DNA from: a virus
Length of the DNA stretch: 64,000 bases
Virus record (IMG/VR): IMGVR_UViG_3300021964_008599
Location: 2,680 to 66,679 of that record
Reading direction: 5' to 3' (one strand)
The notes below the pieces were generated by a model, which ran no database searches, had not been told where the DNA came from, and worked only from the letters and a program-made list of their open reading frames with translations. The position numbers were made by a program, and so were the translations under genes. This document shows, piece after piece, positions 29,595 through 59,363 of this stretch. Each line of letters starts with the position of its first letter. The first letter of the stretch is position 1.

Positions 29595-31064
29595 ATGTCA
29601 GTTTACAAATCATATTTTAATAGAAACAATACCTTAGTTTTTAATTCATACACTAACACAGGTAGAAATCCTATTGTTGAATTGTTTTTCGGTAGGGTAG
29701 ATAATGTACTCATACCTAAAGGGTATAGTCGTTTTATCTTCGATATAGACCTATCACAACTTCAGGATAAGATATCTAATGGTGAAATATCTACAGGGTG
29801 TTCAAAAAATATGTCACACATCTTACGTATGACCAATACATCAGCATTTGATGAAGAATTACTAAACGATAAATGGTCAAATGGTAGAAGAAGAGCAACG
29901 TCTTTTGATTTAGTATTATTTAGAATACCTAAAACATCAGGTTCAACAGGTGACTCTCAAGTATGGGATGAAGGTGTGGGATATGATTATTATGATTTTA
30001 GCCAAATTCCAACTGACAAATCTTATTCTAATCGACCGTCAAACTGGTACGAAGCTCAAACAATTAAAAATTGGTCGTTAAATGGGATATACGATAACGA
30101 AAACAATCAAACAATTTCAGGATTAAACTTTAGCGGTTTAACTATTGTAGATACTCAACACTTTGAGTTTGGTAATGAAGATATTGAGTTTGATATGACT
30201 GACGAAATTAACAACATTCTTACAGGTGCAACTACAGGTGTTACAGGATGGGGTGTTGCGTTTTATCCTCAAGTTGAGAATATTACAGGTCTTACTGAAA
30301 ACTATTCAGTAGGTTTCTTCTCTCGTCATACACAAACATTTTACGAACCTTACTTAGAAACAACATATGACGATTTAATTCAAGACGATAGAAATATATT
30401 CTACGCAGAAAAAAACAACAAACTTTACTTATATAGTTACAGTTTTGGTAACCCTCAAAATTTTGATTCAAACCCAACTGTAGATATTTTAGATTTAAAT
30501 GGTAACGTTGTTGATGGATTTACTGATTTACCTACATGTCAGGTTACTAATGGTGTTTACGAAGTTGAAGTTAGTGGTCTTACCGCATCAACAGTACCGT
30601 GTATGTATTATGATGTATGGAAGGGTCTTAGTGTCGATGGTGTTGATTTAAATAATGTTGAAAACGAATTTGTTATTAATGACCTTTCAGGATATTACCA
30701 AATAGGTTCAACAACAAATGAACCTTCATTGTATGGTTTTGACTTTTACGGCATAAAACAGGATGAGAAGATTTTAGGCACTGACACCAGAAAAGTTAAC
30801 GTTGTTTTAAAGAAGGCATATACTACAAATGAAGTGTTGAATAAAGTAGACGCGTATTACAGAATCTATGTTAGAGAAGGTAAAACTGAAGTACAGGTTC
30901 AAGATTGGACAGAATTAAATAGAACACCAGATGGTCATTATTTTATATTACACACGGACGATAAGATACCTAATGAATATTTTATTGATTTAAAAGTGAT
31001 TACCGACCGAGAGGTTAATACTTATAAAAGAGAATTAAAATTCCAAATTGTTAATAGAAAATGA
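29595..31064 (+). CDS. Putative virion structural protein
   Basis: 489 aa beta-rich ORF next to the spike gene; TATTTAT motif upstream. Confidence 0.6.
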   Translation: MSVYKSYFNRNNTLVFNSYTNTGRNPIVELFFGRVDNVLIPKGYSRFIFDIDLSQLQDKISNGEISTGCSKNMSHILRMTNTSAFDEELLNDKWSNGRRRATSFDLVLFRIPKTSGSTGDSQVWDEGVGYDYYDFSQIPTDKSYSNRPSNWYEAQTIKNWSLNGIYDNENNQTISGLNFSGLTIVDTQHFEFGNEDIEFDMTDEINNILTGATTGVTGWGVAFYPQVENITGLTENYSVGFFSRHTQTFYEPYLETTYDDLIQDDRNIFYAEKNNKLYLYSYSFGNPQNFDSNPTVDILDLNGNVVDGFTDLPTCQVTNGVYEVEVSGLTASTVPCMYYDVWKGLSVDGVDLNNVENEFVINDLSGYYQIGSTTNEPSLYGFDFYGIKQDEKILGTDTRKVNVVLKKAYTTNEVLNKVDAYYRIYVREGKTEVQVQDWTELNRTPDGHYFILHTDDKIPNEYFIDLKVITDREVNTYKRELKFQIVNRK

Positions 31065-31324
31065 AAAAGGTAACCATCACAGAGTCAGATTTAATTGAGA
31101 TTATTACAAGAGTAATCAACGAAAAGAAAAAATCCAAAAAGAAAAAAAAGAAGAAAAAGGACACAACATTGTGTTCACGTGGTAAAAACGCTGCAAAGGC
31201 TAAATATGAAGTCTACCCATCGGCATATGCTAATGGTTACGCAGTACAAGTATGTAAAGGTAAGATGCCAGGTCTGGACGGAAAAAAAAGATGTTCAGGA
31301 AAGTATTGTTCAGGTAAAAAATAA
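31061..31324 (+). CDS. Small basic protein with conserved N-terminal leader
   Basis: MKKVTITESDLIEIITRVINE, then a poly-Lys tract and YPSAYANGYAVQVCKG. Confidence 0.75.
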   Translation: MKKVTITESDLIEIITRVINEKKKSKKKKKKKKDTTLCSRGKNAAKAKYEVYPSAYANGYAVQVCKGKMPGLDGKKRCSGKYCSGKK

Positions 31325-31359
31325 TACTTATATTTGTAAAAAGTTTACAACAAAAAAAA

Positions 31360-31551
31360 ATGTCATACAGCACCACTACCTATCAACTGATTAAAAAATC
31401 TAAGGATTTATCAGAAAAAGTCATATTAGAAACAGACGCATCTACAATAGAGAGAGCCATGGATTATTTCTACATGTTAAAACCAAAATCTTACGGAAAT
31501 AAAAAATATTCTATTAGAATTAAAAAGAGAGAAACGACTCTATCTTATTGA
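31360..31551 (+). CDS. Hypothetical protein
   Basis: 63 aa ORF preceded by TATATTTG (31329-31336). Confidence 0.55.
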   Translation: MSYSTTTYQLIKKSKDLSEKVILETDASTIERAMDYFYMLKPKSYGNKKYSIRIKKRETTLSY

Positions 31552-32097
31552 TTTAGATATCACCCACTTGTAACCGATATCACCACCGTGAGTTAACCAA
31601 TCCACATATTCTTTGTGTTGCTCAGGTTTACCTTTAAATGATTCATTAAGACTTACGTTATTTTTCTTTGAGTCAAAAAAGTTTTTTAGATAAGATAATT
31701 CTTCTTCATTAACAACACCTCTTTCAATAATCATAACCATCTTTTTATTAAGTGATTGACCCTTTCTTGAATACATAATACCTTTTTTCATTTCAGAAAT
31801 TACAGGTTTAGGTATCCTAATTAATCCATTATTTTCCATAATAACGATTTTAAGGTCACCAGTACCCTTAAATACTCTGTGGTATGTACCTTTAGGTATG
31901 AAGTATTTTTGACCTTCTTGCAAGTCCTGAGGTATCTCCTCGTCCATTTGTAACTTCCAACCCTTACCTGACTCAACAAAAACAATACGGTCGTATTGGT
32001 CTTTGTGCCATTTTAACTCATCAGTATCTACAGATTCACTGAATACCCTTCTAAATTTATTATATGATATATGTTGATTAGAATAGACCATTACCAA
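31540..32097 (-). CDS. Cupin-like domain protein
   Basis: WHKD...VESGKGW...FIPKGTYHRV cupin motifs. Confidence 0.65.
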   Translation of the reverse strand: MVMVYSNQHISYNKFRRVFSESVDTDELKWHKDQYDRIVFVESGKGWKLQMDEEIPQDLQEGQKYFIPKGTYHRVFKGTGDLKIVIMENNGLIRIPKPVISEMKKGIMYSRKGQSLNKKMVMIIERGVVNEEELSYLKNFFDSKKNNVSLNESFKGKPEQHKEYVDWLTHGGDIGYKWVISKSIR

Positions 32098-33323: not shown

Positions 33324-33401
33324 GCTTGATTATTGTTATAATTTACTTATCTATTAGATAAATATAACTGAGAATAAACTTTTCACTTAAATAAGAAAAA
33401 A

Positions 33402-33812
33402 ATGGCTAGACCTAAAAAAACAGAGACTACGGCTTCAGAAACAAAAAAGCCAACAACTCGTAAATCAAGAACTAAAAAAACTGAAACTGCACCTGTAGAG
33501 GAGCAAGTAAATGAAGTGTTAGAAGAAACACCTCAAACGGAAGAAACACCTCAAACGGAAGAACCAAAACCAATCGGTACATTGTTCAACGTAATTAACT
33601 ATAATAATGTTGAAGACTTAGACCGTTTCATTCAAAACCTAACTCAAGACCAAGCATTGTACTGTGTTATACAAGCCGCAAGAGCGGGACATCAAAGAAG
33701 TGTATATGGAATGGAAGAGTCAGAAGTTGTTTCAAAAGCAATTAGGGTATTAACTACTCCACCTGCTGAACAACAACAAGAAGTACCTGAACCTGAGGTT
33801 CACAAAGCTTAA
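33402..33812 (+). CDS. Hypothetical protein
   Basis: 136 aa ORF with an 18-bp tandem duplication (EETPQT x2); followed by a terminator. Confidence 0.75.
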   Translation: MARPKKTETTASETKKPTTRKSRTKKTETAPVEEQVNEVLEETPQTEETPQTEEPKPIGTLFNVINYNNVEDLDRFIQNLTQDQALYCVIQAARAGHQRSVYGMEESEVVSKAIRVLTTPPAEQQQEVPEPEVHKA

Positions 33813-33829
33813 CCAATTAAACTTAATTG

Positions 33830-33856
33830 AAGGGGACGTAATTGTCCCCTTTTTTA
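33830..33856 (+). terminator. Rho-independent terminator
   Basis: aaggggac-gtaatt-gtcccctt followed by a T run. Confidence 0.8.
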
Positions 33857-33868
33857 TGCAAAAAAACT

Positions 33869-34060
33869 ATGGATAGAAAAGATGTAAGTTCAAGAATTTG
33901 TAAATTATCAACAGAAGTTACAATCGCAGTAATAAATGGTCATAGACCACACGACCATGATAAGTTTAGAGAACACCGAAGAGAGTTGGCTGAATTAAGA
34001 TGTAAATATTTTGGTGAAGAATCCAAAATATGTAAAACTGAAAGAAAAAACTTTAGGTAG
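33869..34060 (+). CDS. Hypothetical protein
   Basis: MDRKDVSSRIC...; ATG at 33869 after an A-rich leader. Confidence 0.55.
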   Translation: MDRKDVSSRICKLSTEVTIAVINGHRPHDHDKFREHRRELAELRCKYFGEESKICKTERKNFR

Positions 34061-34065
34061 TTAAA

Positions 34066-34096
34066 TAAAAAAAGGGGACCAAATGGTCCCCTTTAA
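34066..34096. terminator. Bidirectional terminator downstream of the major capsid gene
   Basis: aaaggggacc-aaat-ggtccccttt with an A run on the left. Confidence 0.85.
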
Positions 34097-34114: not shown

Positions 34115-35902
34115 TTATCTTAAAGAGTTCAAATCGAATGTACGTACACCGTCAACAACGATTCTACCGTAGAAACGGTTGTTCACCATCTTCTTAGCGT
34201 ATCTAGTCATGATACCCTTGATTGGTGTGAAGTTGAATGGATTGTACATTGTAGGTGTCAACTGTAATGGTACGTATGGTGCGTAAACGTAACCTGTATC
34301 CAATAAAGAAGAACCTTTATGACCCATCAATACAGTGTTAGGTGGGAAGTAAGGGTCACGGTAAACTTGGTATCTACCTGATAACGTACCTACTCTCTCA
34401 ATACCCATGTTGTATTGGTCTTGGTCTGGTGCTGCGTTTGAAACGTGGAAGTACTCCAAGTCATCAAAGATTGCAGAAATTTCAGAAGAAACTACAATCC
34501 AGTTAGCACCACCTCTAAGAGTTGATTTGTGAATTTGAGCTGAGATTTGGTTAATCGCAGTGATTAACGTTTGGTTCCAGTCTTTTTGGTTGTAGTTAAC
34601 TGAACCGTTAGATACTCTCTTCCACCCGTTGTAGTCCCAACGTAATGTCCAAGCTGCACCTTTTCTCAAGTCTCTTAAGATTTCACGGTCAATTTCAGCA
34701 GCCACTTGCTCAGACAATAAAGCTGTCAATTCAGCTTCAGCGTCGATGTTGTGGAATGCAGAAACGTCTTGTGCAAGTTCTGGAGACCATTGTGCTCTTA
34801 ATTTTCTTTCTGTTACAGAAACAGTAACTGCATCAAGGTCGAAAGATACCTCACCGATTTTATCTTCGAATTCCATATCTTGATAAATTCTGTACTTAGC
34901 TTTCAATGTGTTATATAGACCACTATCATCTGCGAAAGTTTGTCCTGTGTAACCATCCAAAGATGTAGTAGAACCGATAGCTGCAGGTTCAGATACGTCT
35001 ACAGATAAGTAAATCTTACCATCAGCAGTACAGATGTCATCATATTTACCACCTGGGAAACCTTGACCTCCACCAGCAATTGATGTGTCACCCACACTTC
35101 CATACTCAACAATACCTTTACCGTATTTCTGAGTTACAACGTTAAAGTTGTAGAATACAGAACCACTGTAAACTTGTAATGAAGATAAGAATTCTTCAGT
35201 ATCCATTTCGTTACCGTTAGGTCCGATTAATTTACCAGCTCCATCAGATTGGAAATCTGACATTTCAACTAATACTTGTCTGAAACCACCTGTTGGTGTT
35301 GTAGACGAACCTGTGTAGTAAGCATTAGCACCAGTGTTAGTCAATGAAGAACCATCCCAAATTACTGGAGTTAATGTAACATTAGTAATTCCTGAGTAAG
35401 CTCCTTTTGAATAATCGAATAAACCTGCTGGGTCTTCGTTTGGTTCAGAACCTTCATAGAAACGGTCATACAAGTTCTTACCTGTATCGTAGTTTGAATC
35501 TGGTGTTGATGGACCATTAGGTGCTCCGAAAGGTGCAACGTGTGTGTTTAATGAGTCCTGATTTCTGTTTTGAATTTTAGGTACGAAGTAGAACAATTTA
35601 CCGATTGGTAAGTTCATAGCTTGTACAGATACGATATCATTAGCTAATAATTTAGAGAAAACTCTTCTAATGATAGGGAAAACAACTGTTTCAAATGAAC
35701 CTGAGTTATCTGAAGCAGATGCTTCGTTGATTAAGTGAGAAGCTTGGTTTTCATACAATTGTGCCATGTTCTCTTTGATGTGACCATTAAGACCTTCTAA
35801 GAATCCTAATTTGTCCCATTTGTTGATTGTGTCTTCTTTGATAACTTTCAAGTGTTTTAAACCGATGTTACCAACAAGACCTGATTCTAATAATGCTCCC
35901 AT
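34115..35902 (-). CDS. Major capsid protein (T4 gp23-like)
   Basis: DIVSVQAMNLPIG, RKLRAQWSPELAQD, EAELTALLSEQVAAEIDREI, YAPYVPL, GIMTRY. Confidence 0.97.
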   Translation of the reverse strand: MGALLESGLVGNIGLKHLKVIKEDTINKWDKLGFLEGLNGHIKENMAQLYENQASHLINEASASDNSGSFETVVFPIIRRVFSKLLANDIVSVQAMNLPIGKLFYFVPKIQNRNQDSLNTHVAPFGAPNGPSTPDSNYDTGKNLYDRFYEGSEPNEDPAGLFDYSKGAYSGITNVTLTPVIWDGSSLTNTGANAYYTGSSTTPTGGFRQVLVEMSDFQSDGAGKLIGPNGNEMDTEEFLSSLQVYSGSVFYNFNVVTQKYGKGIVEYGSVGDTSIAGGGQGFPGGKYDDICTADGKIYLSVDVSEPAAIGSTTSLDGYTGQTFADDSGLYNTLKAKYRIYQDMEFEDKIGEVSFDLDAVTVSVTERKLRAQWSPELAQDVSAFHNIDAEAELTALLSEQVAAEIDREILRDLRKGAAWTLRWDYNGWKRVSNGSVNYNQKDWNQTLITAINQISAQIHKSTLRGGANWIVVSSEISAIFDDLEYFHVSNAAPDQDQYNMGIERVGTLSGRYQVYRDPYFPPNTVLMGHKGSSLLDTGYVYAPYVPLQLTPTMYNPFNFTPIKGIMTRYAKKMVNNRFYGRIVVDGVRTFDLNSLR

Positions 35903-35926: not shown

Positions 35927-37315
35927 TTATTTTTGTAATTTACCCATTAAATCCTTCATTCTTAAGAACTGTGGATTTTCATAAGTTTTACTTTCAATAA
36001 GATTTGTCGCAGAACCTTTAGATGGTGATTTCTGTACTTTAGCAGATACTGATTCAGTAACTACTGTAGTATTTTCCTTACTATCTAAATCTTCTTTGAT
36101 AATCTTGTAAAGACCTTTAGACTCTTTAATTGTTTCTGCCGAGTCAAAACGTCTTAGAATGTTTATTTTTTCTTGCTTTGTTGTCGAATGCTCAGTGAAC
36201 AGTCGAGTAGCATATGCTAAGTTTGAATTGAAAACAGCAACTTCGTTAAGTTTTTCTTTAAAGATGTTAAGTGCCTTACGGTACTCTTCATTCTTTTCTC
36301 TTAACTGAGCAACTTCTTTTTCAAGTGCCTCATTTCTTTGTGCTGGTCTCTTTAAAGACTTAGGGAAACCTTGAGGTTTTTTGTTAGTTGCACGACCATT
36401 AACGTTAGAACGAACAGAAGATTCTTTATATTCACCTTCCATTTCTTCACCTTCTTCCATTTCATAGTCTTTGTAGTGTCCATCAACATCACCTAATTTG
36501 TGACCATCACGTCTCTTATAGTCATGTTTGTTTCCACCCCAATTACCTTCTTTCATTTCCTCTTCGTCAGATTCATCTTCGTCAGATTCATCTTCGTCAG
36601 ATTCATCTTCCATTTCGTCTTCTTCACCAAGTTCAATTTCGTAAACAACTTCGTCTTTTTCTTCCATTTCATAACCTTCTTTGTATTCGCCTTCCATTTT
36701 TTCTTCGTCAGCGATTACCTCTTCTTCTTCGTCACCCTCTGTTTGAATTTGATATTCAACATCAGCTTCCTCGTCTTTTAAGTGAATCTCATCACCGTCT
36801 TGTGTTACCACAATACCGTCTTCTTCACCCATAGCTTTGAAAACCTTAAGGACTTCCTCATCAGAAGCGTCAGTTAGGTCAAGAGGTAAAAGAATTTCTT
36901 CTTCATCGTCTACTTCCATGTCGTCACCTGGTAAATCCATCATACTTAACATTTCATCAGAGTCCATTTCGTCTTCCATATCGTCCATGTCTTCCATGTC
37001 TCCCATTTCATCTTCCATTTCATCTTCTACTTCATCTTCAACATCCATCATGTCAAGCTCTTCTTGTTCTTTCATTTCGTGGTCCATTTTGTCCTCACCT
37101 TCTTCCATTTCTTCGCCTTCCATTTTTTCTGCTGCAGATTCTTCCATTTCAACCTCTTCAACATCTTCTTCAGATAGAGATTCTTTTACTAATTCACTGA
37201 TTTCTTCCTTCATAGTAGAAGCAAGTATTCCTTTTGCATTCTCCGTTACGGCTTCCTCCAAATTCTTCATTTGTAGTAGTGCCTCTTCAACTAAGTTTTG
37301 TTTTTTTTCTGCCAT
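35927..37315 (-). CDS. Prohead core scaffold protein (gp22-like)
   Basis: Very acidic coiled-coil protein between the protease and the capsid gene. Confidence 0.8.
   Translation of the reverse strand: MAEKKQNLVEEALLQMKNLEEAVTENAKGILASTMKEEISELVKESLSEEDVEEVEMEESAAEKMEGEEMEEGEDKMDHEMKEQEELDMMDVEDEVEDEMEDEMGDMEDMDDMEDEMDSDEMLSMMDLPGDDMEVDDEEEILLPLDLTDASDEEVLKVFKAMGEEDGIVVTQDGDEIHLKDEEADVEYQIQTEGDEEEEVIADEEKMEGEYKEGYEMEEKDEVVYEIELGEEDEMEDESDEDESDEDESDEEEMKEGNWGGNKHDYKRRDGHKLGDVDGHYKDYEMEEGEEMEGEYKESSVRSNVNGRATNKKPQGFPKSLKRPAQRNEALEKEVAQLREKNEEYRKALNIFKEKLNEVAVFNSNLAYATRLFTEHSTTKQEKINILRRFDSAETIKESKGLYKIIKEDLDSKENTTVVTESVSAKVQKSPSKGSATNLIESKTYENPQFLRMKDLMGKLQK
36561..36610. repeat. 15-bp tandem repeat (x3.3) within the scaffold gene
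   Basis: tcttcgtcagattca repeated; encodes EDESDEDESDEDESDE. Confidence 0.9.
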
Positions 37316-37404
37316 TGTTTTAATTTTATTGCAAAAGTTTATTATGTAGTTTTCTTAATAAATATGCTGATATTAAAAAAAACACTTTTTTATTAACATT
37401 AGGC

Positions 37405-37680: not shown

Positions 37681-38403
37681 TTAATACCCTAAATAATCGG
37701 TTAATTTTTTCATTAAGTCAAGTGATTTGTCTAAACCACCTGAAGATTCTGCAGAACCGCTTCTTTGTTTAGTTTCTTCTTCGATGTTCTCATCATATTT
37801 CATACGGTCATCTTTATTCAAGAATAAGTACGCACCAGGTGTTGATGGTGAAGAAACAAGGTCAAAACAAATTAATTCAAAATCTTCTTGAACTTCATTA
37901 CGTTCACCTTTCTTTACTAACGAACCTACACCACGAGATGAAACACCCATAGTTACACCTTGTCTCATAAGGTTGGCTGCTTGGTCACCAGGACACGAAA
38001 CAACACCACCTTGATGGAAACCTGGTGAAGTTAATAATTTAATCTTACCCATTAATACATTACCTTCCCACCACATATCAGTGATAAGGTGTGATACACG
38101 GTCCAAATCAATCAATGATGATTCAGGGTGGTTAAGTTCTGAGATAGATAAACCTTTATCGATAGCTTGAGAATATTTCTCAGCTTCTCTTCTTAATATT
38201 TTTTCAGGGTAGATACGACCGTTTCTGTTTGGTGTGTCGTATTTTTGTAGGACAGCATAAAATTCAAATGGTTTTGAATGGTCTAATTGTCCGTAAGATT
38301 CTTTAATAACTTCGGCGTTTCTTCTATCGTTTGGATTGATAAAACCTGCGTCCCATTCAATCAATATACCTTTACCCGTATCGTTTGGACCTAATATTTT
38401 CAT
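37681..38403 (-). CDS. Prohead core protease (T4 gp21-like)
   Basis: NRNGRIYP, ELNHP, RVSH, GVSSRGVGS, FDLVSSPSTPGA. Confidence 0.95.
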   Translation of the reverse strand: MKILGPNDTGKGILIEWDAGFINPNDRRNAEVIKESYGQLDHSKPFEFYAVLQKYDTPNRNGRIYPEKILRREAEKYSQAIDKGLSISELNHPESSLIDLDRVSHLITDMWWEGNVLMGKIKLLTSPGFHQGGVVSCPGDQAANLMRQGVTMGVSSRGVGSLVKKGERNEVQEDFELICFDLVSSPSTPGAYLFLNKDDRMKYDENIEEETKQRSGSAESSGGLDKSLDLMKKLTDYLGY

Positions 38404-38425
38404 ATCTTTTTATTTTATAAATATC

Positions 38426-38806
38426 TTAGATTCCTAAATGAACGTCCCACTCAGTTATTTTAATTGGTGTAACTCTTAGTAAATTGTTTATTTTATCTAC
38501 GATAGACATTTTATATTTATAAGCCAGTTCACTATCCTCACCTTCACCAGACCAAAAAACATAATTGTTTGCAAATTGAGTTACGTCTTGACCCTCATAT
38601 GTTACTTTACCAATATTTACGGTAACGGTAATGTCTTCATCTTCTATACTACCCTCCATAAAGACTTGGCGTGGTATAATAATTGAATCCTTCCACCCAT
38701 ATTCATATGAAAACTTATTGGGGTCTATCATATTATTAAGGTTATCCAAAAGCGTATTTGCTTCGGATAACCTTTTTAATTGTTTCTCTGTTATTAAGAT
38801 TTTCAC
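38426..38806 (-). CDS. Hypothetical protein with leader (MKILITEKQLKRLSE)
   Basis: 126 aa ORF, GTG start, TATTTAT motif upstream. Confidence 0.7.
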   Translation of the reverse strand: MKILITEKQLKRLSEANTLLDNLNNMIDPNKFSYEYGWKDSIIIPRQVFMEGSIEDEDITVTVNIGKVTYEGQDVTQFANNYVFWSGEGEDSELAYKYKMSIVDKINNLLRVTPIKITEWDVHLGI

Positions 38807-38830
38807 TTTTTACCTTTTAAGATAAATATG

Positions 38831-40334: not shown

Positions 40335-40354
40335 AATGTTTTTTATTATAAATA

Positions 40355-42241: not shown

Positions 42242-42289
42242 GCTCCTTTTTTAGATAAATAGTAACATTATTTGAATTAAACTAAATAA

Positions 42290-49548: not shown

Positions 49549-50289
49549 TTAAAATTGGACTTCTTGCCAAAATTTAAGTTCACCGTTCTCACAACTCCAT
49601 TTAAATGGGTTACTTTGTTCACCAGCACCTTTATTTAGATTACCACTACCATTAGTATTAAAACCAAAAACTTTTTTATTACCATTTTCATCTTCTACTA
49701 CTCGTGTAACTTCATAACCTGCCATTTCTTCACCTTGACCTTCAATAGGTTCTCTACCAAGACTCATGTAACATTCGTTTTGATTATTGTTCTCAGTTTC
49801 AGTATCAGTTTCTGACTCAGTTTCAAATAATTTAGCGATTGTATTCTTACCTACTTTACCATCTTTCTTTAAACCATTTTCAACTTGGAAAGCCTCAACT
49901 TTATCTTTAGTATCGTCACCAAAAATACCATCAGGTTCCATTTCTAATTTACATTGGATGACTGCAATGACTTTTTTGGCACCTTCATAACCTGTTCTAT
50001 CATCGTAAACCTGCGTACCCTTTTGTACTACCCATCTGTTAACCTTCAAATTGTCTATCCACTTTTTAACACCCTCATCTTTAAGGTACTCATCTACTTC
50101 ATCACAACTATATGTTTCTTGTGATGATGTTTGGTCAGTAGTAGTTTCTTGAGATGTCTCCTCACCAGCATCGGCTTGGTCAGTTGCGTCATTCTCTTGC
50201 TCCTTAAGATATTGTCTAGAAATGGCTGACTTATGCATCCCTAAAATTCTATCTTTTTCAGATTCGTCTATTCTAAATAATCTTTTCAT
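49549..50289 (-). CDS. Peptidoglycan-binding domain protein with N-terminal leader
   Basis: IQCKL..DGIFGDDTKDKVEAFQVENGLKKDGKVGKNT (PG_binding_1). Confidence 0.8.
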   Translation of the reverse strand: MKRLFRIDESEKDRILGMHKSAISRQYLKEQENDATDQADAGEETSQETTTDQTSSQETYSCDEVDEYLKDEGVKKWIDNLKVNRWVVQKGTQVYDDRTGYEGAKKVIAVIQCKLEMEPDGIFGDDTKDKVEAFQVENGLKKDGKVGKNTIAKLFETESETDTETENNNQNECYMSLGREPIEGQGEEMAGYEVTRVVEDENGNKKVFGFNTNGSGNLNKGAGEQSNPFKWSCENGELKFWQEVQF

Positions 50290-50325
50290 AATTAAATTCT
50301 TTTACATATAAATATATCGTAAAAT

Positions 50326-51012: not shown

Positions 51013-53031
51013 ATGATTGAATCAGTAGACCCTAATGAAAAAGGTGGACGTAAGTCCAAAGGAATGACCGACTCTAAAACACCTGTTTTGGATAACTTTG
51101 CACGTGACTTAATTAAACATGCTGAGGAAGGTAAATTAGACCCTGTGGTAGGTCGTGAGCGTGAGATTAATCGTATCGCACAAATTCTTTCACGTAGAAA
51201 GAAAAATAACCCCATTATTATCGGTGAACCAGGTGCTGGTAAAACAGCCATCGTTGAAGGTTTGGCAATGAAGATTTTTGAAGGTGATTGTCCTCAAAAC
51301 CTATGTGATAAAAGAATCGTATCTTTAGATATGACCTCTATTGTCGCTGGTACCAAATATCGTGGTCAATTTGAGGAACGTTTAAAGGTTATCTTGGATG
51401 AATTGTATGAAAACCCTGATATCATCGTGTTTATCGATGAAATTCATACCATCATCGGAGCTGGTAATTCATCGGGTTCATTAGATGCGTCCAACATCTT
51501 TAAACCAGCACTTGCTCGTGGTGAACTACAATGTATTGGAGCAACAACTCTTGATGAATACCGTGAGAACATCGAAAAAGACGGTGCACTTGAACGTAGG
51601 TTCCAAAAGGTTGTGGTTGATGGTGCAACTCCCGATGAAACGATGGAGATATTACAAAACTTAAAATCACGTTATGAGTCTCACCACAAAGTTTCGTATT
51701 CAGAAGAATCGTTAAAAGCTTGTGTGGCACTTGCTGACCGTTACATCACGGACCGTGAGTTCCCTGATAAAGCGATTGACATTTTGGACGAAGTGGGTGC
51801 ACGTGCACAAATTAATGTCAAACTTCCTGAAGTTATTGAAAAACTAAAAGAAGAGGCAAATCTCATCAAAGATGAAAAACTTAAAGTTGTAAAGTCTCAA
51901 CAGTATGAAAAGGCTGCAGAACTTCGTGATAAGGAAAAGAAGATTCTTAAAAAACTTGAGGACGAAAAGATTAGGTTTGAAGAGGAGAAAGATTCCGTTC
52001 GCAAACCTATCACTGAAGATATGGTCTATGAAGTTGTGGCAACAATGACCAAGATTCCTGTAAACAAATTAAACACAGACGATAAAGAATCTTTGTTGAA
52101 TTTGGAGGAAAACTTAAATAAATCAGTTATTGGTCAAGAACCTGCAGTTCAAGTCATCTCAAAAGCAATCCGTAGAAACCGTGTGGGTATTAAAGACCCT
52201 AACAGACCTATCGGTTCTTTTATCTTCTTAGGTTCAACGGGTATCGGTAAAACTCACTTGGCAAAACAACTGGCAAAAGAAATCTTCGGAGATGAAGACG
52301 CGTTAATCAGAATGGATATGAGTGAATACCAAGAGAAATACACCATGTCTCGTTTGATTGGTTCTCCTCCAGGGTATGTAGGTCACGACCAAGGGGGTCA
52401 ACTTACCGAGGCGGTGAAGAACAAACCTTACTCAGTAGTATTGTTTGACGAAATTGAAAAGGCCAACAAAGACATCTTTTCACTCCTCCTTCAAATGATG
52501 GATGATGGTCACCTAACGGACAGTTTTGGTAGAAAGATTAACTTCAGAAACTGTTTGATTATTATGACATCAAACTTAGGTGTTAAGAAACTTCAAGATT
52601 TTGGTACAGGTGTTGGTTTTGAAACCACAAACCGTATGTCAAATAATGAAGACATGAAAAAAGCACTTCTACAGAAAGAATTAAAGAACCACTTCACACC
52701 TGAGTTCCTTAACCGTGTCGATGAGGTTGTAGTCTTTAACCCACTTAAAGAAAATGAAGTATCACAAATTGTTGATATTGAATTGTTGAAGTTGACATCT
52801 CGTTTAGAGAAGATGAGGTACAACATCACTATTTCAGATAAGGTTAAAGAGTTTATCTCAAAGGTTGGTTTTGATGAGAAATACGGTGCACGTCCAATTA
52901 AAAGAGCGATTCAAGAAAAGATTGAAGACCTTATCTCTGAAGAAGTTTTACGAGGAACCATCACTGAAAATAAGTCTTTCGTTGTAGAGATGAAAGATGA
53001 AGAAGAATTAGAAATAAAAGAGGGGAAATAA
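51013..53031 (+). CDS. clpC: ClpC-like AAA+ unfoldase lacking the N-terminal Clp-repeat domain
   Basis: Two Walker A motifs ([16 protein letters not shown]), FIDEIH, UVR M-domain [24 protein letters not shown] ClpP loop, GARP. Confidence 0.93.
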
Positions 53032-53092: not shown

Positions 53093-54145
53093 ATGGATAA
53101 CAATCAACTCACCCGACTTAAGGAAGTCCTTTCGGTACCAACAAAAACTTACCAAGAGGATAATATGGTACAGTACTTACGCGACGTATTGGATGCAATG
53201 CCCGATGTAGAACACTATACCGATGATATGGGTAACGTATACGCCACGAAAGGTGTTCTTAATGAAGGTGAGTGTTATCCTATGTTTATTGCTCACACCG
53301 ACACTGTTCACGCACTTGTCGATGAAATCGTTGTTCGAGAAGAAACACTTGCCAAACCCAATACCTTTGGTCTAAAATTTGACGACCAAACATTCCTTTC
53401 TTTAAAAGGTTACACCCCTGATGGTGAACCTACAGGTATCGGTGGTGATGACAAGTGTGGGGTCTTCATAGCATTGGAACTTCTACGTACACTATCCAAA
53501 GTAAAAGTAGGGTTATTTGTATCTGAGGAAACAGGGTGTCACGGCTCCAGTAAATGTGACCCCAACTTCTTGAACGATGTGGGCTATGCAATACAATTTG
53601 ATGCACCTGGCAATGCTTTAATTACCGAGCTTTGTTCGGGAGTTCGATTGTATGAAAAAGATGGTGAGTTTATCAATAAACTTAAACCTATCTTTGAGCA
53701 GTCTATGGGTACTGTTTCTGATGAACAATCACACCCATTTACTGACGTATCACAAATTAAAAGGAAGGGAGATTTTAGTTGTATTAATTTCTCATGTGGG
53801 TATTACAACATGCACACAGTACAAGAATTCGTTGTTATTGATGATGTTAAACGAGCTCTTGAATTTGCTGAAAATGCCGTATCGTCTTTGGGTTACGTAA
53901 AATACCCTTACGAATACCAACAACCTACATGGAAGTCGTATGGAGATTTGTTTGATATTGATGACTTTGATGATGACTTTTCAGAAGACAAAATCGACAT
54001 GGAACGACTAATCGTCACCACCTCAGACGAAGGTATGACCATCGAATCAAAATTTAGTGGAGATTTGATTGAGTTGGATGATGAAGAAATGTTGGACATC
54101 TATGAGGCCATTAAAAGCCACCTAATGTCAAAATACACACACTAA
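53093..54145 (+). CDS. M20/M28/M42-family metallopeptidase
   Basis: AHTDTVH, GGDDKCG, SEETGCHGS, QFD, GYYNMHT. Confidence 0.9.
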   Translation: MDNNQLTRLKEVLSVPTKTYQEDNMVQYLRDVLDAMPDVEHYTDDMGNVYATKGVLNEGECYPMFIAHTDTVHALVDEIVVREETLAKPNTFGLKFDDQTFLSLKGYTPDGEPTGIGGDDKCGVFIALELLRTLSKVKVGLFVSEETGCHGSSKCDPNFLNDVGYAIQFDAPGNALITELCSGVRLYEKDGEFINKLKPIFEQSMGTVSDEQSHPFTDVSQIKRKGDFSCINFSCGYYNMHTVQEFVVIDDVKRALEFAENAVSSLGYVKYPYEYQQPTWKSYGDLFDIDDFDDDFSEDKIDMERLIVTTSDEGMTIESKFSGDLIELDDEEMLDIYEAIKSHLMSKYTH

Positions 54146-56046
54146 TCCTCAAAAGGGTCAAACAATTGATAGTTCGACATTAACTGTTGGATTGTCGATA
54201 GTTTGGCCTTTCCTTTTTTAAATCCGTAGTTGTCACCTCTTCGGGTAAGTTCAAAAACTATTTTATTATCGGTAGGGTCTACACTCTTAAACCTTATTTC
54301 CACATTACCGCCAGCAGTTTCAACAGGTATCCTTTCGTCAAATTCATATTTGTTGCTTATGAACGTATAAATTCTTTTATATTCTTCCAAGTCTGAGTAT
54401 TCATCAGAATCTTCAAGTTTCTCTAATAAAGTATCTAATGCAGAATCCATATCTGAATTAAAGTGGTATTCAAATGTTTCATCATCTCTAACCTCATACG
54501 CCATTTCACGAGGTTCACGAATATCAAATGAAACTCTACCAGGTATTACAACGGTTTTTAATAATTGGTCTAAAGTTAAACCTGAAAACGATTCTAAATC
54601 GTCCTCATAAAATTCTATTAGGTTATCTATTGGAATCCTATACGATGAGAAACAATCACCATTTTTTTCCATACCTATGGGTGAATACACTTCACACGCT
54701 TCTTCACTTATTGCGTTTTTAACACCAACTTTCATAGATTCATCCTCAGCTGTGGAATATGCATATGAAAAATCATCAATAAATCTACTATCAAAATTTA
54801 ATAAGTACTTACCTATTTTAGACTCACAACCATCACTAATTTTTAAATTGTAAAGGTCATAAAAATCTTTTTCATCATTACCTTTATGTATGAATTTTTG
54901 TAAATTATCTTTATTCATTTTAGGTATTGTGGCTTTAAAACAATTGATTAATTCACTTCCTGAAAGTTTTATAATTTCTCGTAACTTTTTTAAATGGTCT
55001 TGAGTTAACACATTTAATGGGTAACCTTCACGCATATCATCATCGAAGTTATAAGCATCATAATACATACTATCATAACCATACGGTGTATCGATGGCAT
55101 ATTCAACATCTTTTAATTCGTATTCGTCAACCTCTTCAACAAATAAGCTTAAATAATCCGCAACGTCATCAAATTGGAAATAAACATAATCTTGGTCCAT
55201 CTTATAAAAATAATCGGCAGATAAAACTTGATTCAAATCTTTACGGTTACCTGATTTGGCATTTTTTAGTTTTTCGTAATCATCGTCACCTTTAACCAAC
55301 TTTTTGATGATGTCAGTCAACGGTTCAAAACGTTGTATTAAAGTATCCAAAGACCTGATAGAATCTTTTTGGTCGTAGACTTCAGTGTTTCCATTATGTC
55401 GAACAAACAACGCCATTTTCCCCCATATGTTATCACTACTCTTCTTATCTATAATATAAAATAAAGAGCCTTCTTCACTGTACTTGTCAAAGTATCGGGT
55501 ATCGTCTTTTGTGGTGGTACACCATTTGGTATTTGCTCCATAATAACAAGATGCATTGTGACTGAAAGGACGCAATATTAAAAATCTTTCGTCTTCATAG
55601 ATTTTTTCAACGTCTTTTTTGGCTTCGGTTTCTTTTTCTACCTCAATCTTTCTTTTACGAACACCGTTTAATACCGCTTGTAGTGCCCAAATTGTATCGT
55701 ATTTGTAAATGTCTTTTGGTCCTGACTTAATTCTATCAGGTTTAACTAAACTTGATAACGTGGCAGCATAATCAATATCTTCTGGTGTTATTGATGAAGA
55801 TGTTTTATGAAAATTTTCAATAATCTCAATAAACAGATTTACATTGTCGGCGATAGAATGAGTTAATCGGTCACCCAATCCAATCATTTGTTTAATCATC
55901 CACTCAGAATACTTTTTTGTCGATGAAGGGTCACCGTCAATAAGTTTTTCCAATAAATGAGTTGCGTCTTCAAAGGTGTCTTCATCTTTATATTTGTCGA
56001 TAAGATTTTCCTTTTTACCCTCAAGTAGTAAGTTGATGAATTTCAT
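54142..56046 (-). CDS. Hypothetical large-phage protein (ASCYYGANTKWCT motif)
   Basis: 634 aa ORF; TATTTAT motif upstream. Confidence 0.75.
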   Translation of the reverse strand: MKFINLLLEGKKENLIDKYKDEDTFEDATHLLEKLIDGDPSSTKKYSEWMIKQMIGLGDRLTHSIADNVNLFIEIIENFHKTSSSITPEDIDYAATLSSLVKPDRIKSGPKDIYKYDTIWALQAVLNGVRKRKIEVEKETEAKKDVEKIYEDERFLILRPFSHNASCYYGANTKWCTTTKDDTRYFDKYSEEGSLFYIIDKKSSDNIWGKMALFVRHNGNTEVYDQKDSIRSLDTLIQRFEPLTDIIKKLVKGDDDYEKLKNAKSGNRKDLNQVLSADYFYKMDQDYVYFQFDDVADYLSLFVEEVDEYELKDVEYAIDTPYGYDSMYYDAYNFDDDMREGYPLNVLTQDHLKKLREIIKLSGSELINCFKATIPKMNKDNLQKFIHKGNDEKDFYDLYNLKISDGCESKIGKYLLNFDSRFIDDFSYAYSTAEDESMKVGVKNAISEEACEVYSPIGMEKNGDCFSSYRIPIDNLIEFYEDDLESFSGLTLDQLLKTVVIPGRVSFDIREPREMAYEVRDDETFEYHFNSDMDSALDTLLEKLEDSDEYSDLEEYKRIYTFISNKYEFDERIPVETAGGNVEIRFKSVDPTDNKIVFELTRRGDNYGFKKGKAKLSTIQQLMSNYQLFDPFED

Positions 56047-56051
56047 AAAAA

Positions 56052-56112
56052 CTTTTACTATAAATACTTGACTGTTTGGATAATTAACAAATAAGCCTTA
56101 TATTTGTAGTAT
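56052..56112. repeat. 61-bp direct repeat copy 1 (bidirectional promoter cassette)
   Basis: Identical to 57509-57569. Confidence 0.95.
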
Positions 56113-56140
56113 GAATAAAAATAAACTAATAAAGAACATA

Positions 56141-56347
56141 ATGAAGAATCTATTTTTACCGATGTTAGTGTTATTACTAATTGTTTCTTGTACTACTAAA
56201 AACAACTCGACTATTAGTAAATCGAAAAGTAATGATACCACTAACCAAACCATCATTTTAGTTAATGACACCCCAAGAGTAGTAATTGATACCGTGGCAG
56301 TACTTAATGATGATGGGACTGTTGAATATTTTTATACTTACAAATAG
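56141..56347 (+). CDS. Small lipoprotein
   Basis: MKNLFLPMLVLLLIVS-C lipobox; alternative start at 56111. Confidence 0.7.
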   Translation: MKNLFLPMLVLLLIVSCTTKNNSTISKSKSNDTTNQTIILVNDTPRVVIDTVAVLNDDGTVEYFYTYK

Positions 56348-56356
56348 AAATACAAT

Positions 56357-57499
56357 CTATTTCCCTAATTCGTAATTACCCTGATTAGTTTTTTTGGTTG
56401 CTCTTCCACCTCCAGTGGCCTTTCCATAGTTAACACCGTTTATGTGACCATCCAAACCTCTACCTATCGGTAAATAAGTTTTTGGTTTAACTTGACTTAA
56501 AAACGATTCAGACTTTTCAGGGTAATTTTCATCCAAATATATTTTAATTCGTTTTTTATACTCATCTACGATAAATTTAGCAATATCATTATTAAATTTT
56601 TCATATATTTTTTGATAGTAATTTTCATTATAGTTACCTGATTTTAAATCTGAATTTTTTAATTTTGGTAACTTAGATAAATACGATTGAATCGATTGTG
56701 TATTAATCTCTCCTAATTTTTTTCTATCGTAATCTTTGTCTGCAAAATTTTTGTCTAACGATTCAATAAATTTCACAATACTACCTGCTATTTGTGTACT
56801 ATTTTGACCTATCAATTTTTTGTACATATCATCCTTACTCTTAAAACCAGGATAGTTAGATTTAGAATTAGTAATAATGAAAGATGCAATATATCTAGCA
56901 ATACCGTTAAATGTGGATTGAGTATTGTTAATTTTAGATGGGTTCCAACTAACCATACGACTTTCTCTTTTTTCACTACTCATACTTATAATCACCCTGT
57001 TTGGCATTTTTTCAGTTGTATCTGTTTTCATCGCCCTTGCCAATGCTAATAATCCATTTTGACAACCAATTATTCTTGTGACTTTATAGATAATATCACC
57101 GTCTTTATAATATATGTCAGCATTAATACTTCCAGATTTATTTAGTTTATAAATTTTACTCTTACCCGCACGTTTATCTTTAGTATTTACAGGTGTAACA
57201 TAAAATTGAATAAAATCACCTAATTTAGCATCTGAAGGAGTTGATAATTCAGTAAATAAAGATAAATCTTTTGTTTCTACAAATGTTTTTCTTGCTTTCG
57301 GCCATCCTCTTAATTCCCAAAAATTTTTGTAATTACTTTCATTGGCTTTTAATCCGTATTGTGTTAGTACCTTTGGATTAACTATTCTTTCAGGGCTAGT
57401 ACTACCTTGGATGGTTTCAAACCCACTTTGTTCATTTAAAATATTTCTCACAATTTTCTGAACATCAGATTCAGTCAAACGTATAATTTTCTTTGCCAT
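56357..57499 (-). CDS. Hypothetical protein with conserved N-terminal leader
   Basis: MAKKIIRLTESDVQKIVRNILNEQ... Confidence 0.8.
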   Translation of the reverse strand: MAKKIIRLTESDVQKIVRNILNEQSGFETIQGSTSPERIVNPKVLTQYGLKANESNYKNFWELRGWPKARKTFVETKDLSLFTELSTPSDAKLGDFIQFYVTPVNTKDKRAGKSKIYKLNKSGSINADIYYKDGDIIYKVTRIIGCQNGLLALARAMKTDTTEKMPNRVIISMSSEKRESRMVSWNPSKINNTQSTFNGIARYIASFIITNSKSNYPGFKSKDDMYKKLIGQNSTQIAGSIVKFIESLDKNFADKDYDRKKLGEINTQSIQSYLSKLPKLKNSDLKSGNYNENYYQKIYEKFNNDIAKFIVDEYKKRIKIYLDENYPEKSESFLSQVKPKTYLPIGRGLDGHINGVNYGKATGGGRATKKTNQGNYELGK

Positions 57500-57508
57500 C
57501 TTTAAAAT

Positions 57509-57569
57509 CTTTTACTATAAATACTTGACTGTTTGGATAATTAACAAATAAGCCTTATATTTGTAGTAT
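57509..57569. repeat. 61-bp direct repeat copy 2 (bidirectional promoter cassette)
   Basis: Identical to 56052-56112. Confidence 0.95.
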
Positions 57570-58109
57570 ATGAAACGAATAGTCAACATAATCTTACTGG
57601 TCTTATTATCAACACCTGTTTTTTCTCAGGGTTTTAATGACTCTATTATGAATCATGTTTTATACGATATGGTTGTTGACTACACAATGAAAAGAGATAC
57701 TACTGTAAATTTATACTTTACAGAAGTTGGTGCTGAATTACATAGTAAACATTCTGTAGAATATATGAGAACTAATGGGGTAAGACACATGCCCTCACAC
57801 AGTTACATAGGCAGTTTACCTAATAACGAAGCAATGATGATTTTAAATGATATTGGTTTGGATACCACAGAATTTCGTTATGTTGGTCGGTGTGAGATAT
57901 TAGCCCGAATACCAATACGAGGTGAAACTACTTATCAAAAAGTGGCACAGATAGCTCTTAACGGTTGGTTGAACTCAAATGGTCACATGGGAACGATAAA
58001 AAACATGGGTGTATATAACCATAACTTCGCATTAGGTATAAGTTCAAGTTATAATGAAAAGACACGAAGTATAGATATTGCACTAACAAGTTTTGGTCTA
58101 CATAAATAA
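57570..58109 (+). CDS. Secreted CAP/SCP-like domain protein
   Basis: Signal peptide MKRIVNIILLVLLSTPVFSQ; HS.EYM...H, EIL, GWLNSNGH motifs. Confidence 0.65.
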   Translation: MKRIVNIILLVLLSTPVFSQGFNDSIMNHVLYDMVVDYTMKRDTTVNLYFTEVGAELHSKHSVEYMRTNGVRHMPSHSYIGSLPNNEAMMILNDIGLDTTEFRYVGRCEILARIPIRGETTYQKVAQIALNGWLNSNGHMGTIKNMGVYNHNFALGISSSYNEKTRSIDIALTSFGLHK

Positions 58110-58136
58110 AAAAATCCTCGTTATGAGGATTTTTTA
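58108..58136. terminator. Bidirectional terminator
   Basis: aaaaaatcctc-gttat-gaggatttttt. Confidence 0.85.
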
Positions 58137-59363
58137 TTAGTTTCGTATAGTTTCTGTATACTTTGGAATATTAAAAGTAATTCTTCTGTTTGGTTGAGTG
58201 TCTTTTGGTTTTGTCGGTTTTTCTTTTGACCATGCAGGTCCAAATTTACTTGTCTCACCATGACCCTTACTTTTGATAGTAACATTAATACCAAAACTAT
58301 TAAATATTTCTTGTAAATCCTCAGCAACTTTCTTAGCTCTTTCTTCAGATAGACATAAATTATACTGACCTCTTGTTCCGTCACCATATCCTCTACACCC
58401 ACTGAATTTTCCTTGAACTTTCTCATTAGGGTCATTATCACGAGACGCAAAACCGTTTACTACTAAATTTTGTTTTTGTAAAAATTCTTTAAATCCTTTA
58501 AGACCTGTCAATCCATCATTTAAATCAGATTTGAATTTTACCAAAACTTCTTGATAACCTGAAGGGTCATTCATATCGATAGTATCAAACTTAAATACGT
58601 CAACCAAATCTAATTTAATATTTTCTGATGCAAATTCAGGAGTTACTGTTTCACCTTCATCACCAAAGTTTACAAGACCAACCTCGTCTAAATACAATCC
58701 TATAGAACCCATTTCAATTTCTATAAAGAATCTATTGCGTCCCCAAGCCATTGGATGTCCATTAAAAAAATCCATTAAAGGTATCTTTGTATTAAATCCC
58801 CAAAACTTATCATTGGACTTAAGTTTTTTTCTTCTAGCATTTATACTCTTTTTACCCTTTCTACTTGCATTGGACTTGTCATATTGAAATAACTTAAAAC
58901 TTGGTATACCATCTATATTTTTTAATGGTCCCATTAATAAAGAAATTTTCATATTATCCATTTGGTCTTTTATTTCAGGATGTAACGATATTAATTTCTT
59001 GAAATTAGAATTATTACCAATTATTTCATCATAATAATTCTTTAATTCTACACTCCCAAGGTCAAAAGGACGTTTAACAATAACTAAATTACCTTTATCT
59101 TGATAATAAAGAAATGGTTTATTAAATGTCACATTTCCTTCTTTATCTGTTATCTCTATATTAGGGTTTCCATTTGGACCTGCTACAGGTTGTATAAACA
59201 AATTTTCATTAAAAATCTCTGTTTGTTTTTCTTTCATGAATGATTGTATTTTTTTATTCAATTCATTCAAAACCTCAGTATCGTTCATTCCCTGTTCAGA
59301 AATTATTTTCTTTACAATTTTTTCAATATCGGCTTCTGTTAACCTTATAACTTTCTTTCCCAT
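58137..59363 (-). CDS. Leader-bearing protein with C-terminal OmpA-like domain
   Basis: MGKKVIRLTEADIEKIVKKIISEQ; FKFD, VNGFAS, YNLCLSEERAKKV, GHGET, NRRITF. Confidence 0.8.
   Translation of the reverse strand: MGKKVIRLTEADIEKIVKKIISEQGMNDTEVLNELNKKIQSFMKEKQTEIFNENLFIQPVAGPNGNPNIEITDKEGNVTFNKPFLYYQDKGNLVIVKRPFDLGSVELKNYYDEIIGNNSNFKKLISLHPEIKDQMDNMKISLLMGPLKNIDGIPSFKLFQYDKSNASRKGKKSINARRKKLKSNDKFWGFNTKIPLMDFFNGHPMAWGRNRFFIEIEMGSIGLYLDEVGLVNFGDEGETVTPEFASENIKLDLVDVFKFDTIDMNDPSGYQEVLVKFKSDLNDGLTGLKGFKEFLQKQNLVVNGFASRDNDPNEKVQGKFSGCRGYGDGTRGQYNLCLSEERAKKVAEDLQEIFNSFGINVTIKSKGHGETSKFGPAWSKEKPTKPKDTQPNRRITFNIPKYTETIRN

Follow-up and report, generated by a model that had tools for sequence, protein, structure and literature searches.

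Interchangeable N-terminal leaders on unrelated proteins of an uncultured phage: a candidate capsid-targeting and cleavage system

Why would a phage put similar short peptides in front of proteins that otherwise have little in common? The question is raised by a viral DNA of 64,000 nucleotides (positions 2,680 to 66,679 of IMG/VR record IMGVR_UViG_3300021964_008599, hereafter the window), i.e. 64 kb out of a 66.7-kb contig with a G+C content of about 32%. An earlier note on this DNA had proposed that seven genes, named here by their start positions (8343, 31061, 38806, 50289, 56046, 57499 and 59363), share one amphipathic leader ending in hydrophobic-x-Glu, and that this leader is a portable tag which sends cargo into the prohead and is then removed by a phage protease. 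Our answer, to which we give about even credence, is that the leaders belong to an expanded capsid-targeting and cleavage system of the type found in phage T4. Below we describe the leaders, their junction and their genomic context, and then weigh this answer against other explanations.

Leader families and their distribution

The N-termini quoted in the earlier note read as stated in all seven genes (the gene at 38806 starts with GTG), and five of the seven (31061, 57499, 59363, 38806 and 50289) do carry a recognizable leader. It is not one single leader: there are three families in the window (A, B and C), and the proteins at 8343 and 56046 fit none of them. The type A leader has the consensus MKK-I-I-RLTESDL-x-RIVKRVI-x-E/Q, where the slash, here and below, marks the junction with the cargo. 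It is found at 57431-57499 (minus strand; 23 residues ending in ILNE/Q; hidden Markov model (HMM) E=1.3e-15) in the 380-residue protein encoded at 56357-57499, at 59295-59363 (minus strand; 23 residues ending in IISE/Q; E=1.3e-13) in the 408-residue protein encoded at 58137-59363, and in a divergent form of 21 residues ending in VINE/K at 31061-31123 (plus strand; E=9.7e-10) in the 87-residue protein encoded at 31061-31324. These three were the only significant matches when HMMs of 3 and of 58 sequences were each run against all six frames of the 66.7-kb contig. When the N-termini of 72 open reading frames (ORFs) were compared all against all, three clusters exceeded the shuffled maximum, and the only one of leader type consisted of these three; the other two were a tail-fibre-like pair and a chance-level pair.

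The N-termini of the proteins at 38806, 50289, 8343 and 56046 do not match the type A HMMs (E>1). The other families became apparent in a complete relative of 292 kb, G005, in which the N-termini of 339 ORFs of at least 60 residues were compared without a preset pattern. Several separate families emerged, and the leader cluster lies above every shuffled control. The families are A (MKKIIRLTESDL-x-RIVKRVI-x-E), B (MK-x-LF..E-x-EK-x-RIL-x-MH...LL-x-EQ), C (MKIIITESQYK-x-L-x-E), D (M..L.E.IRKILKEE) and E (MNLQENIRRI..MM), and together these five are carried by 59 of 357 ORFs (16.5%). An HMM of family C, built from 15 G005 proteins, matches residues 1-17 of the 38806 protein (E=1.3e-7); this type C leader (38762-38806, minus strand) has 15 residues, ends in LSE/A and belongs to a 126-residue protein (38426-38806) encoded inside the head module. 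The G005-derived HMM of family B matches residues 1-32 of the 50289 protein (E=1.9e-5); the type B leader (50200-50289, minus strand) has 30 residues, ends in YLKE/Q and precedes a 246-residue PG_binding_1 protein (49549-50289). The N-termini at 8343 and 56046 match none of the G005-derived families, and the family D and E HMMs found nothing in the window.

The arrangement of the leader genes in G005 is far from even. A single 75-kb stretch (201-276 kb; loci L105-L108) holds 45 of the 59 leader ORFs, almost all on the minus strand, and they stand in runs of one family, e.g. family D at 243-250 kb and family C at 255-259 kb. Since they are clustered in this way, tandem duplication followed by diversification is suggested.

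Outside G005 the type A leader is widespread in viral sequences. A scan of IMG/VR with a degenerate pattern gave at least 582 sites, of which at least 175 loci were confirmed by tblastn and 80 were kept for analysis. A start codon lies no more than 8 residues upstream of the type A core in 78 of these 80 loci, while the other two begin with MKIKKNGKVI... The five complete relatives have 7-16 type A ORFs each, and the 8-residue core in G005 occurs 18 times within the first 35 residues of a protein and twice elsewhere. A profile of 58 distinct type A leaders, run against 1.84 billion cluster representatives, retrieved 8,798 proteins at E<=0.001, of which 784 reach E<=1e-10. All of the best 150 matches have an N-terminal copy, and the same 150 proteins hold 55 internal copies. 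A pattern scan of prokaryotes (one genome for each of 185,579 species) ended with 9 confirmed type A loci, and the leader is thus nearly confined to viral contigs.

The leader left hardly a trace in reference resources. No match was obtained by tblastn in 50,697 GenBank phage records with a 26-residue leader, so that by this search it is absent from cultured relatives, nor in GenBank phages with the 408-residue protein, and no Pfam or PHROGs model covers the leader. The strings RLTESDL, LTESDL and RLTESD were not found in a full-text literature search, a homolog search by words restricted to residues 1-40 returned just near-identical proteins, and a protein atlas yielded weak leads only (scores up to 0.89). 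The IMG/VR scan with a family C pattern gave at least 600 sites, a count that is near chance by our own estimate, and tblastn confirmed one of them.

A further shared N-terminus, which comparisons of N-termini set apart from the leaders, is found in a tail-fibre-like ORF of 1,689 residues (window 1-4713, minus strand) and in a 117-residue ORF upstream of the window (about 1474-1827 of G000:C1); both begin with MEFFI(K/R).NS.LPI(L/I)K.QVVKDGR. G005 has a similar pair (120997-121350 and 190108-190479).

The junction and the exchange of leaders

All 58 type A leaders end in Glu, even though this residue lay outside the search patterns. The hydrophobic residue two positions before it is equally constant, every one of these leaders closing with [I/L/V]-x-E, and the residue after the Glu is Gln in 42 of the 58 leaders and in 115 of 197 copies.

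The junction stays the same when the leader in front of it is exchanged. Among 47 orthologs of the OmpA-like protein (59363), 9 have a quite different leader (MKNKLIESEIRKMMNLIDYKVGMTITEQ.. or MEKKLISEINRYREIIGL..IVEQ..), and M1, E23 and Q24 are nevertheless invariant columns of the alignment. The 57499 protein was aligned with 13 relatives (12 database homologs and locus L048), 6 of which begin with a MKNKLIESEIRKMM.. leader and retain the junction LNEQ/SGF. Because orthologous cargo carries other leader families and yet the same junction, the leaders are, as far as these alignments can tell, exchangeable modules, and the constant part is the hydrophobic-x-E-Q junction. A third candidate for such an exchange, between the PG-binding protein of the window and a type A-led PG_binding_1 protein of the relative G003, was discarded as the two are not orthologs (BLASTP E=0.27).

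The conservation of the leader is especially pronounced in comparison to the protein behind it. Column identity in the 47 OmpA-like orthologs is 0.74 in the leader, 0.31 in residues 25-245 and 0.61 in the OmpA-like domain. In the AF2 model of this protein (mean pLDDT 83.9) residues 1-8 and 14-24 are below 50, and in that of the 57499 protein (pLDDT 80.6) the leader helix reaches 52-59 as against about 90 for most of the cargo; in neither predicted model does the leader pack against the cargo fold. The leader is thus the best-conserved stretch of the OmpA-like protein and at the same time the one modelled with the least confidence, as would be expected of a segment that folds only on a partner. 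The hydrophobic positions of the conserved 23 residues are spaced i, i+3, i+4, i+7 and i+8.

It is the peptide, and not the DNA, that is under selection, because the invariant Thr, Ser and Leu positions use 4-6 synonymous codons each, and synonymous but different codons are nearly as frequent as identical ones in pairwise comparisons of the 58 leaders (10,010 versus 12,678). Two known types of leader were set aside: the charged residues found throughout leave no room for the hydrophobic core, of about 10 residues or more, of a Sec or Tat signal peptide, and cargo of 54-430 residues with folded domains does not fit the short modified core that follows the leader of a ribosomally synthesized and post-translationally modified peptide.

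Two or three leader copies are present in 54 of the best 150 matches. A hydrophobic-x-E motif lies no more than 12 residues upstream of 33 of the 55 internal copies, as compared to 11.3 +/- 2.7 in control windows (2,000 draws). On sequence grounds, such proteins would look like polyproteins in the order cut, tag, cut, cargo.

Head module, promoter-like motif and cargo

A T4-type head module with portal (40355-42241), protease, acidic scaffold and gp23-like capsid genes is found on the minus strand of the window. The product of 37681-38403, which the earlier note had named as the protease, is indeed a prohead protease of the Peptidase_S77 (T4 gp21) family: it matches PF03420 with 83.4 bits (gathering cut-off 27; profile positions 50-188 of 198) and phrog_207 at 1.5e-43, and is the presumed leader-removing enzyme. 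It has a conserved hydrophobic-hydrophobic-x-E motif (VIKE36/S) of its own directly before the catalytic domain. The scaffold gene (35927-37315) stands between those of the protease and the capsid, and by analogy with T4 gp22 its product is the presumed docking partner of the leaders. Across 6 phages the scaffold alignment has three conserved blocks, at residues 1-48, about 140-200 and 334-462. In 3 of these 6 sequences the N-terminal helix closes with SL-x-E-Q, and the window has SLSE/E at this place.

The major capsid protein (34115-35902; phrog_138 at 2e-67) offers a presumed reference substrate of the protease. Residues 1-60 are near-identical in the six phages, and the segment ends in HLINE60/A (LINE at DNA 35723-35734, minus strand) in all of them, which agrees with the earlier note. 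When the protein is aligned to full-length T4 gp23, residues 22-55 pair with gp23 residues 6-42 and residues 71-105 with gp23 residues 92-126. T4 gp23 is cleaved after residue 65 (PMC5694885). This position maps to residues 56-70 of the window capsid, where LINE is the sole hydrophobic-x-E motif, and since the flanking blocks align, LINE60 is bracketed as the probable cleavage site and residues 1-60 as the propeptide. The cleavage specificity of the window protease would then follow from this site. A separate feature of the capsid protein is that its similarity to gp23-type proteins falls into two parts, at about residues 20-110 and 330-585, because of which we assign to it an insertion of some 200 residues relative to T4 gp23.

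The capsid is also informative on the phage itself. With the capsid proteins of five near-complete IMG/VR records (257-322 kb) it shares 74-77% identity, and about 42-45% with those of the nearest GenBank phages, namely Flavobacterium phage immuto, Microcystis phage Mel-JY01 and an uncultured phage of 484 kb. Contigs of similar size to ours that bear leaders are rated as 16-30% complete. For both reasons the window most likely represents one part of a jumbo phage genome of about 300 kb. Several window genes of the non-late type have TA..TTTG upstream, which we take to be the -7 promoter consensus of Bacteroidota, and the host therefore probably belongs to this phylum.

The head module is syntenic in six phages, with variable inserts. 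One relative (G004) has a 138-residue ORF, possibly a homing endonuclease by the look of its sequence, between the protease gene and its upstream neighbour (L131 2712-3128, minus strand), and another (G002) has, ahead of its scaffold gene, a 318-residue ORF that begins with a type C leader (L133 4805-5761, plus strand). The type C gene of the window (38426-38806) adjoins the protease gene, a position at which it is absent from 5 relatives.

Leader genes and head genes have a promoter-like motif in common. The heptamer TATTTAT occurs at 40 sites in the window, 17 of which lie 12-49 nt upstream of the start of an ORF on the same strand; the fraction of the sequence that such positions take up would predict about 1.4 (our own arithmetic). 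It precedes 57499 (57517-57523, minus strand), 59363 (59382-59388), 50289 (50308-50314), 38806 (38822-38828) and 56046, and likewise the protease (38417-38423), scaffold (37358-37364) and portal (42255-42261) genes; a further site is at 40348-40354. For 31061 and 8343 it precedes the first gene of the operon (29575-29581 in the case of 31061). Thus every gene that the earlier note had assigned to a TATTTAT-driven unit has the motif at this distance, directly or through its operon. In G005 it was found upstream of 28 of 59 leader genes and of 57 of 298 other ORFs. As the motif is common to leader and head genes, we infer that the leader genes are expressed late. Two intergenic copies of a 67-nt cassette (56046-56112 and 57503-57569; 99% identity) have TATTTAT facing the minus-strand gene (56046 or 57499) and a TA..TTTG-type motif facing the plus-strand gene (56111-56347 or 57570-58109), the product of which is in both cases a small protein whose N-terminus resembles a signal peptide or that of a lipoprotein.

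The proteins behind the leaders are diverse. The cargo of the 57499 protein (56357-57430) is modelled as a beta-rich and a helical domain with a predicted isoelectric point (pI) of 9.65; it belongs to no Pfam or PHROG family and has no PDB fold match at E<=0.001. The C-terminal domain of the 59363 protein (58140-58628, minus strand) stays below the gathering cut-off of PF00691 (19.3 versus 27.2 bits), and it is Foldseek that upholds the OmpA-like label given by the earlier note: there are 13 PDB matches at E<=0.001, those listed being of the OmpA, Pal, YfiB, OprF or TssL/TagL type, with E=8.6e-5 for the C-terminal domain of OmpA (4rha) and further matches to Pal, MotB and TssL. Four homologs bear the JGI name 'OmpA-like' and one has PF00691. 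The PG-binding label of the 50289 protein is likewise correct (PF01471, 42.2 bits, cut-off 23). In the 31061 protein a lysine run is followed by a Cys-rich domain, and the cargo matches phrog_27331; the remaining two window cargoes, those of the type A 57499 and type C 38806 proteins, have no assigned family. The same Cys-rich domain is C-terminal in leader proteins encoded beside the capsid gene of four relatives (L124, L126, L127 and G005 149774-150232), which have a ..YMFFSNL.. middle domain in place of the lysine run.

Overall, the cargo is small (median 131 residues) and often basic (pI>8 in 58% as compared to 29% of background ORFs), and most of it belongs to no known Pfam family. A domain scan of 117 of the best 150 matches (33 with less than 85 residues were dropped) found LysM, GNAT and a few others. 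The same scan in G005, covering 57 of the 59 leader proteins (two that span locus boundaries were left out), found LysM, Phage_lysozyme, PAP2, Pterin_4a, GNAT, EF-hand and CarboxypepD_reg/Ig-like domains. PG_binding_1 is also found among the cargo of relatives, and peptidoglycan-binding and lysozyme domains are recurrent.

Possible functions and relation to known systems

It is natural to compare the leaders to the capsid-targeting propeptides of T4. According to PMC9026906, PMC3012670 and PMC5694885, the internal proteins of T4 have N-terminal capsid-targeting propeptides of 10-19 residues with affinity for the scaffolding core, which are later removed, and gp21 cleaves after L/I-x-E; the reviewers suggest that such capsid-targeting sequences (CTSs) let T4-like phages load varied proteins. 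The internal proteins co-purify with gp22 (PMC9026906). As in the window, the CTSs of T4 (IPI, IPII, IPIII and Alt, all removed by gp21) are N-terminal peptides on otherwise unrelated, fast-evolving small proteins, they end in a hydrophobic-x-Glu motif for gp21, and one head module includes the genes for an S77 protease of the gp21 family, an acidic scaffold and a gp23-like capsid protein whose propeptide is cleavable. Every feature of the T4 propeptide system that can be read from a sequence is thus present in the window leaders; the likeness is one of functional class, and we do not claim membership by descent.

Translated to this phage, the T4 scheme would work as follows. Late in infection, unrelated small proteins would be made with an N-terminal peptide consisting of a strand and an amphipathic helix (in the window, a leader of family A, B or C). 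The leader would dock its cargo onto the scaffolding core of the prohead under assembly. The S77 protease (37681-38403) would then cut after the invariant Glu of hydrophobic-x-E, as it presumably does at LINE60/A of the capsid protein, and the mature cargo would stay in the head and leave it with the DNA. The cargo so carried would include peptidoglycan-binding proteins and a very basic lysine-rich protein; that the former are ejected to act in the cell envelope is the most speculative element. What the sequences show are the leaders, their place, conservation and exchange, and their occurrence together with head genes that have the same promoter-like motif; docking, cleavage, packaging and ejection are inferred. 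An S77 protease is present in all six leader-bearing records that are at least 90% complete. As to the earlier note's portable capsid-targeting tag, every test that was run fits it, while the single leader and two of the seven examples had to be given up.

There are, on the other hand, a number of points that weigh against capsid targeting with cleavage. Firstly, 181 of the 280 G005 proteins without a leader have a hydrophobic-x-E somewhere between residues 9 and 48, so a match to the motif alone is weak. Secondly, the 23-residue leader is far more conserved than a cleavage site needs to be, and some of the 55 internal copies lack the strand part and consist of the helix only; together these hint at a binding role that does not necessarily involve cleavage. 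Thirdly, 59 tagged ORFs out of 357 are far beyond the T4 precedent or any known set of cargo, and some of the cargo resembles surface or membrane proteins (CarboxypepD_reg plus Ig-like, PAP2). Fourthly, the co-occurrence with S77 may only reflect that the carriers perhaps all belong to one clade. The scaffold offers no further help: the likeness between leader residues 13-28 and scaffold residues 38-53 is not significant (hhalign E=0.15, probability 0.4%), for which reason we dropped the idea that the leader is a copy of a piece of the scaffold, and a complex prediction of leader and full scaffold gave a score of 0.00 and no verdict, which counts neither way on binding. Finally, a leader variant (KKVIRLTESDLHKIVKESV.., ..LTESDLHKIVKESV..) is found in a Prevotellaceae assembly in chromosomal surroundings (GH26, acetyl xylan esterase, IS1595, SusC-like), flanked by polysaccharide-utilisation genes on one side and an IS1595 transposase on the other; 3 of the 5 such assemblies tested contain neither S77 nor a gp23-type capsid gene.

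The Prevotellaceae copy has a counterpart elsewhere. L082 (Prevotellaceae assembly, 4001-4600) and L088 (labelled Bacilli, 21% G+C, 4001-4426) share a variant ..KKVIRLTESDLH(K/R)I(V/I)KESV.. that is followed by a common ..GDTE(K/R)GQ.ALG.. domain. The two come from gut and rumen bacterial assemblies of different phyla, and the L082 copy adjoins the IS1595 transposase among glycan-utilisation genes.

Several of these points would suit a leader that is never cut, i.e. a retained docking or oligomerisation module whose strand and amphipathic helix fold on binding and join the proteins to a hub or to each other, in an inner-body-like or other late assembly. The helical spacing of the hydrophobic positions, the low-confidence models and the presence of two or three copies in one protein, some without the strand part, all agree with this. 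We consider it unlikely all the same: it leaves the invariant E-Q junction, which persists when leader families are exchanged, and the hydrophobic-x-E motifs ahead of internal copies without explanation, and no partner has been identified for such a module.

A bolder extension of capsid targeting, which we regard as quite doubtful, is that the five interchangeable N-terminal peptides constitute a general protein-sorting code of the phage with a dedicated receptor that is not simply the scaffold. Such a code would route about one sixth of the proteome (peptidoglycan binders, lysozyme, small enzymes and tandem leader-cargo polyproteins) to the capsid interior, where it would form a very large arsenal of ejected effectors, or to another late compartment, and because of the Prevotellaceae chromosomal copy it might sometimes be used outside phages.

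The OmpA-like, PG_binding_1, LysM and CarboxypepD_reg/Ig-like domains of the cargo, as well as the late promoter-like motif that leader genes have in common with structural genes, could also mean that the leader is an anchor by which accessory domains are fixed to the outer surface of the virion, as capsid decorations or tail appendages which display peptidoglycan-binding, Ig-like and other adhesive domains. This is improbable, as most of the cargo is small and of no known family, GNAT, Pterin_4a and lysozyme would be atypical decorations, an invariant Glu junction would be superfluous, and the tandem leader-cargo-leader-cargo proteins suit processing more than display.

The leader might, alternatively, address proteins to a machine that is not the capsid, which unfolds, translocates or degrades them. 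The window has a candidate in a two-domain ClpA/B-like AAA+ ATPase (AAA_2, ClpB_D2-small; 51013-53031, plus strand), next to which an M42/M20-like peptidase is encoded (53093-54145, plus strand). The ATPase gene lies among the leader genes, all five complete relatives have it (62-71% identity), and a role of this kind would sit well with a leader variant outside a phage context. However, both the ATPase and the peptidase gene stand behind a promoter of the TA..TTTG type, which in the case of the ATPase differs from that of the leader genes, nothing links the tag to AAA+ recognition, and the co-occurrence perhaps reflects clade membership only. We therefore rate this as very improbable. Lastly, that the leader is a nucleic-acid feature (a translation-initiation region or recombination cassette) or a chance product of an AT-rich genome is hardly credible: AT-rich genomes do favour 5' coding ends rich in Lys, Ile and Asn, and 56046 and 57499 each have a copy of the 67-nt promoter cassette upstream, but the codon comparison, the 8,798 database matches and the position of the leader cluster above every shuffled control contradict it.

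If the leaders are indeed capsid-targeting propeptides, they differ from those of T4 in several respects. They are longer (15-30 residues in the window, 10-19 in T4), there are at least five families per genome and 59 tagged ORFs in a complete relative as opposed to a handful in T4, leader and cargo can be repeated in tandem within a single protein, and Gln is preferred after the Glu. The giant phages phiKZ, 201phi2-1 and SPN3US provide a second comparison, for which we rely on PMC5694885. Like the phage of the window they are jumbo phages, their gp21-type protease has diverged and many of their head proteins are processed; the propeptides of their ejection or inner-body proteins are cut by gp175/gp245 after S/A-x-E. 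The SPN3US paralogs gp53 and gp54 have an identical N-terminus of 15 residues and 34% identity overall, and the authors compared it to CTSs. However, most of these propeptides of giant phages exceed 100 residues and each kind is restricted to a group of paralogs; they do not amount to a single short and portable tag that is carried by dozens of unrelated proteins. The clade of the window also differs from these three phages in that its scaffold and capsid are recognizably of the T4 type.

Encapsulins make use of a related principle, as a short portable peptide sends unrelated cargo into a shell with the HK97 fold. Their cargo-loading peptides are usually C-terminal and are kept on, and the shells are bacterial nanocompartments rather than virions.

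The concept is thus already known from T4 and from the propeptides of giant phages. What the sources that we searched do not describe is this 23-residue tag, its scale, the presence of several interchangeable families in one genome, the swapping of leaders on orthologous cargo and the tandem tag-cargo proteins. The swapping is a natural experiment that can help to identify the receptor. If the tags do load the head, then an uncultured clade of phages of about 300 kb brings dozens of fast-changing proteins into each new host, an injected arsenal that would be far larger and more modular than that of T4. The 8,798 otherwise unannotatable protein clusters could then be read as candidate virion cargo, and the tag would be a handle by which to recognize phage effectors in metagenomes and to bring foreign proteins into the capsids of phages of non-model hosts.

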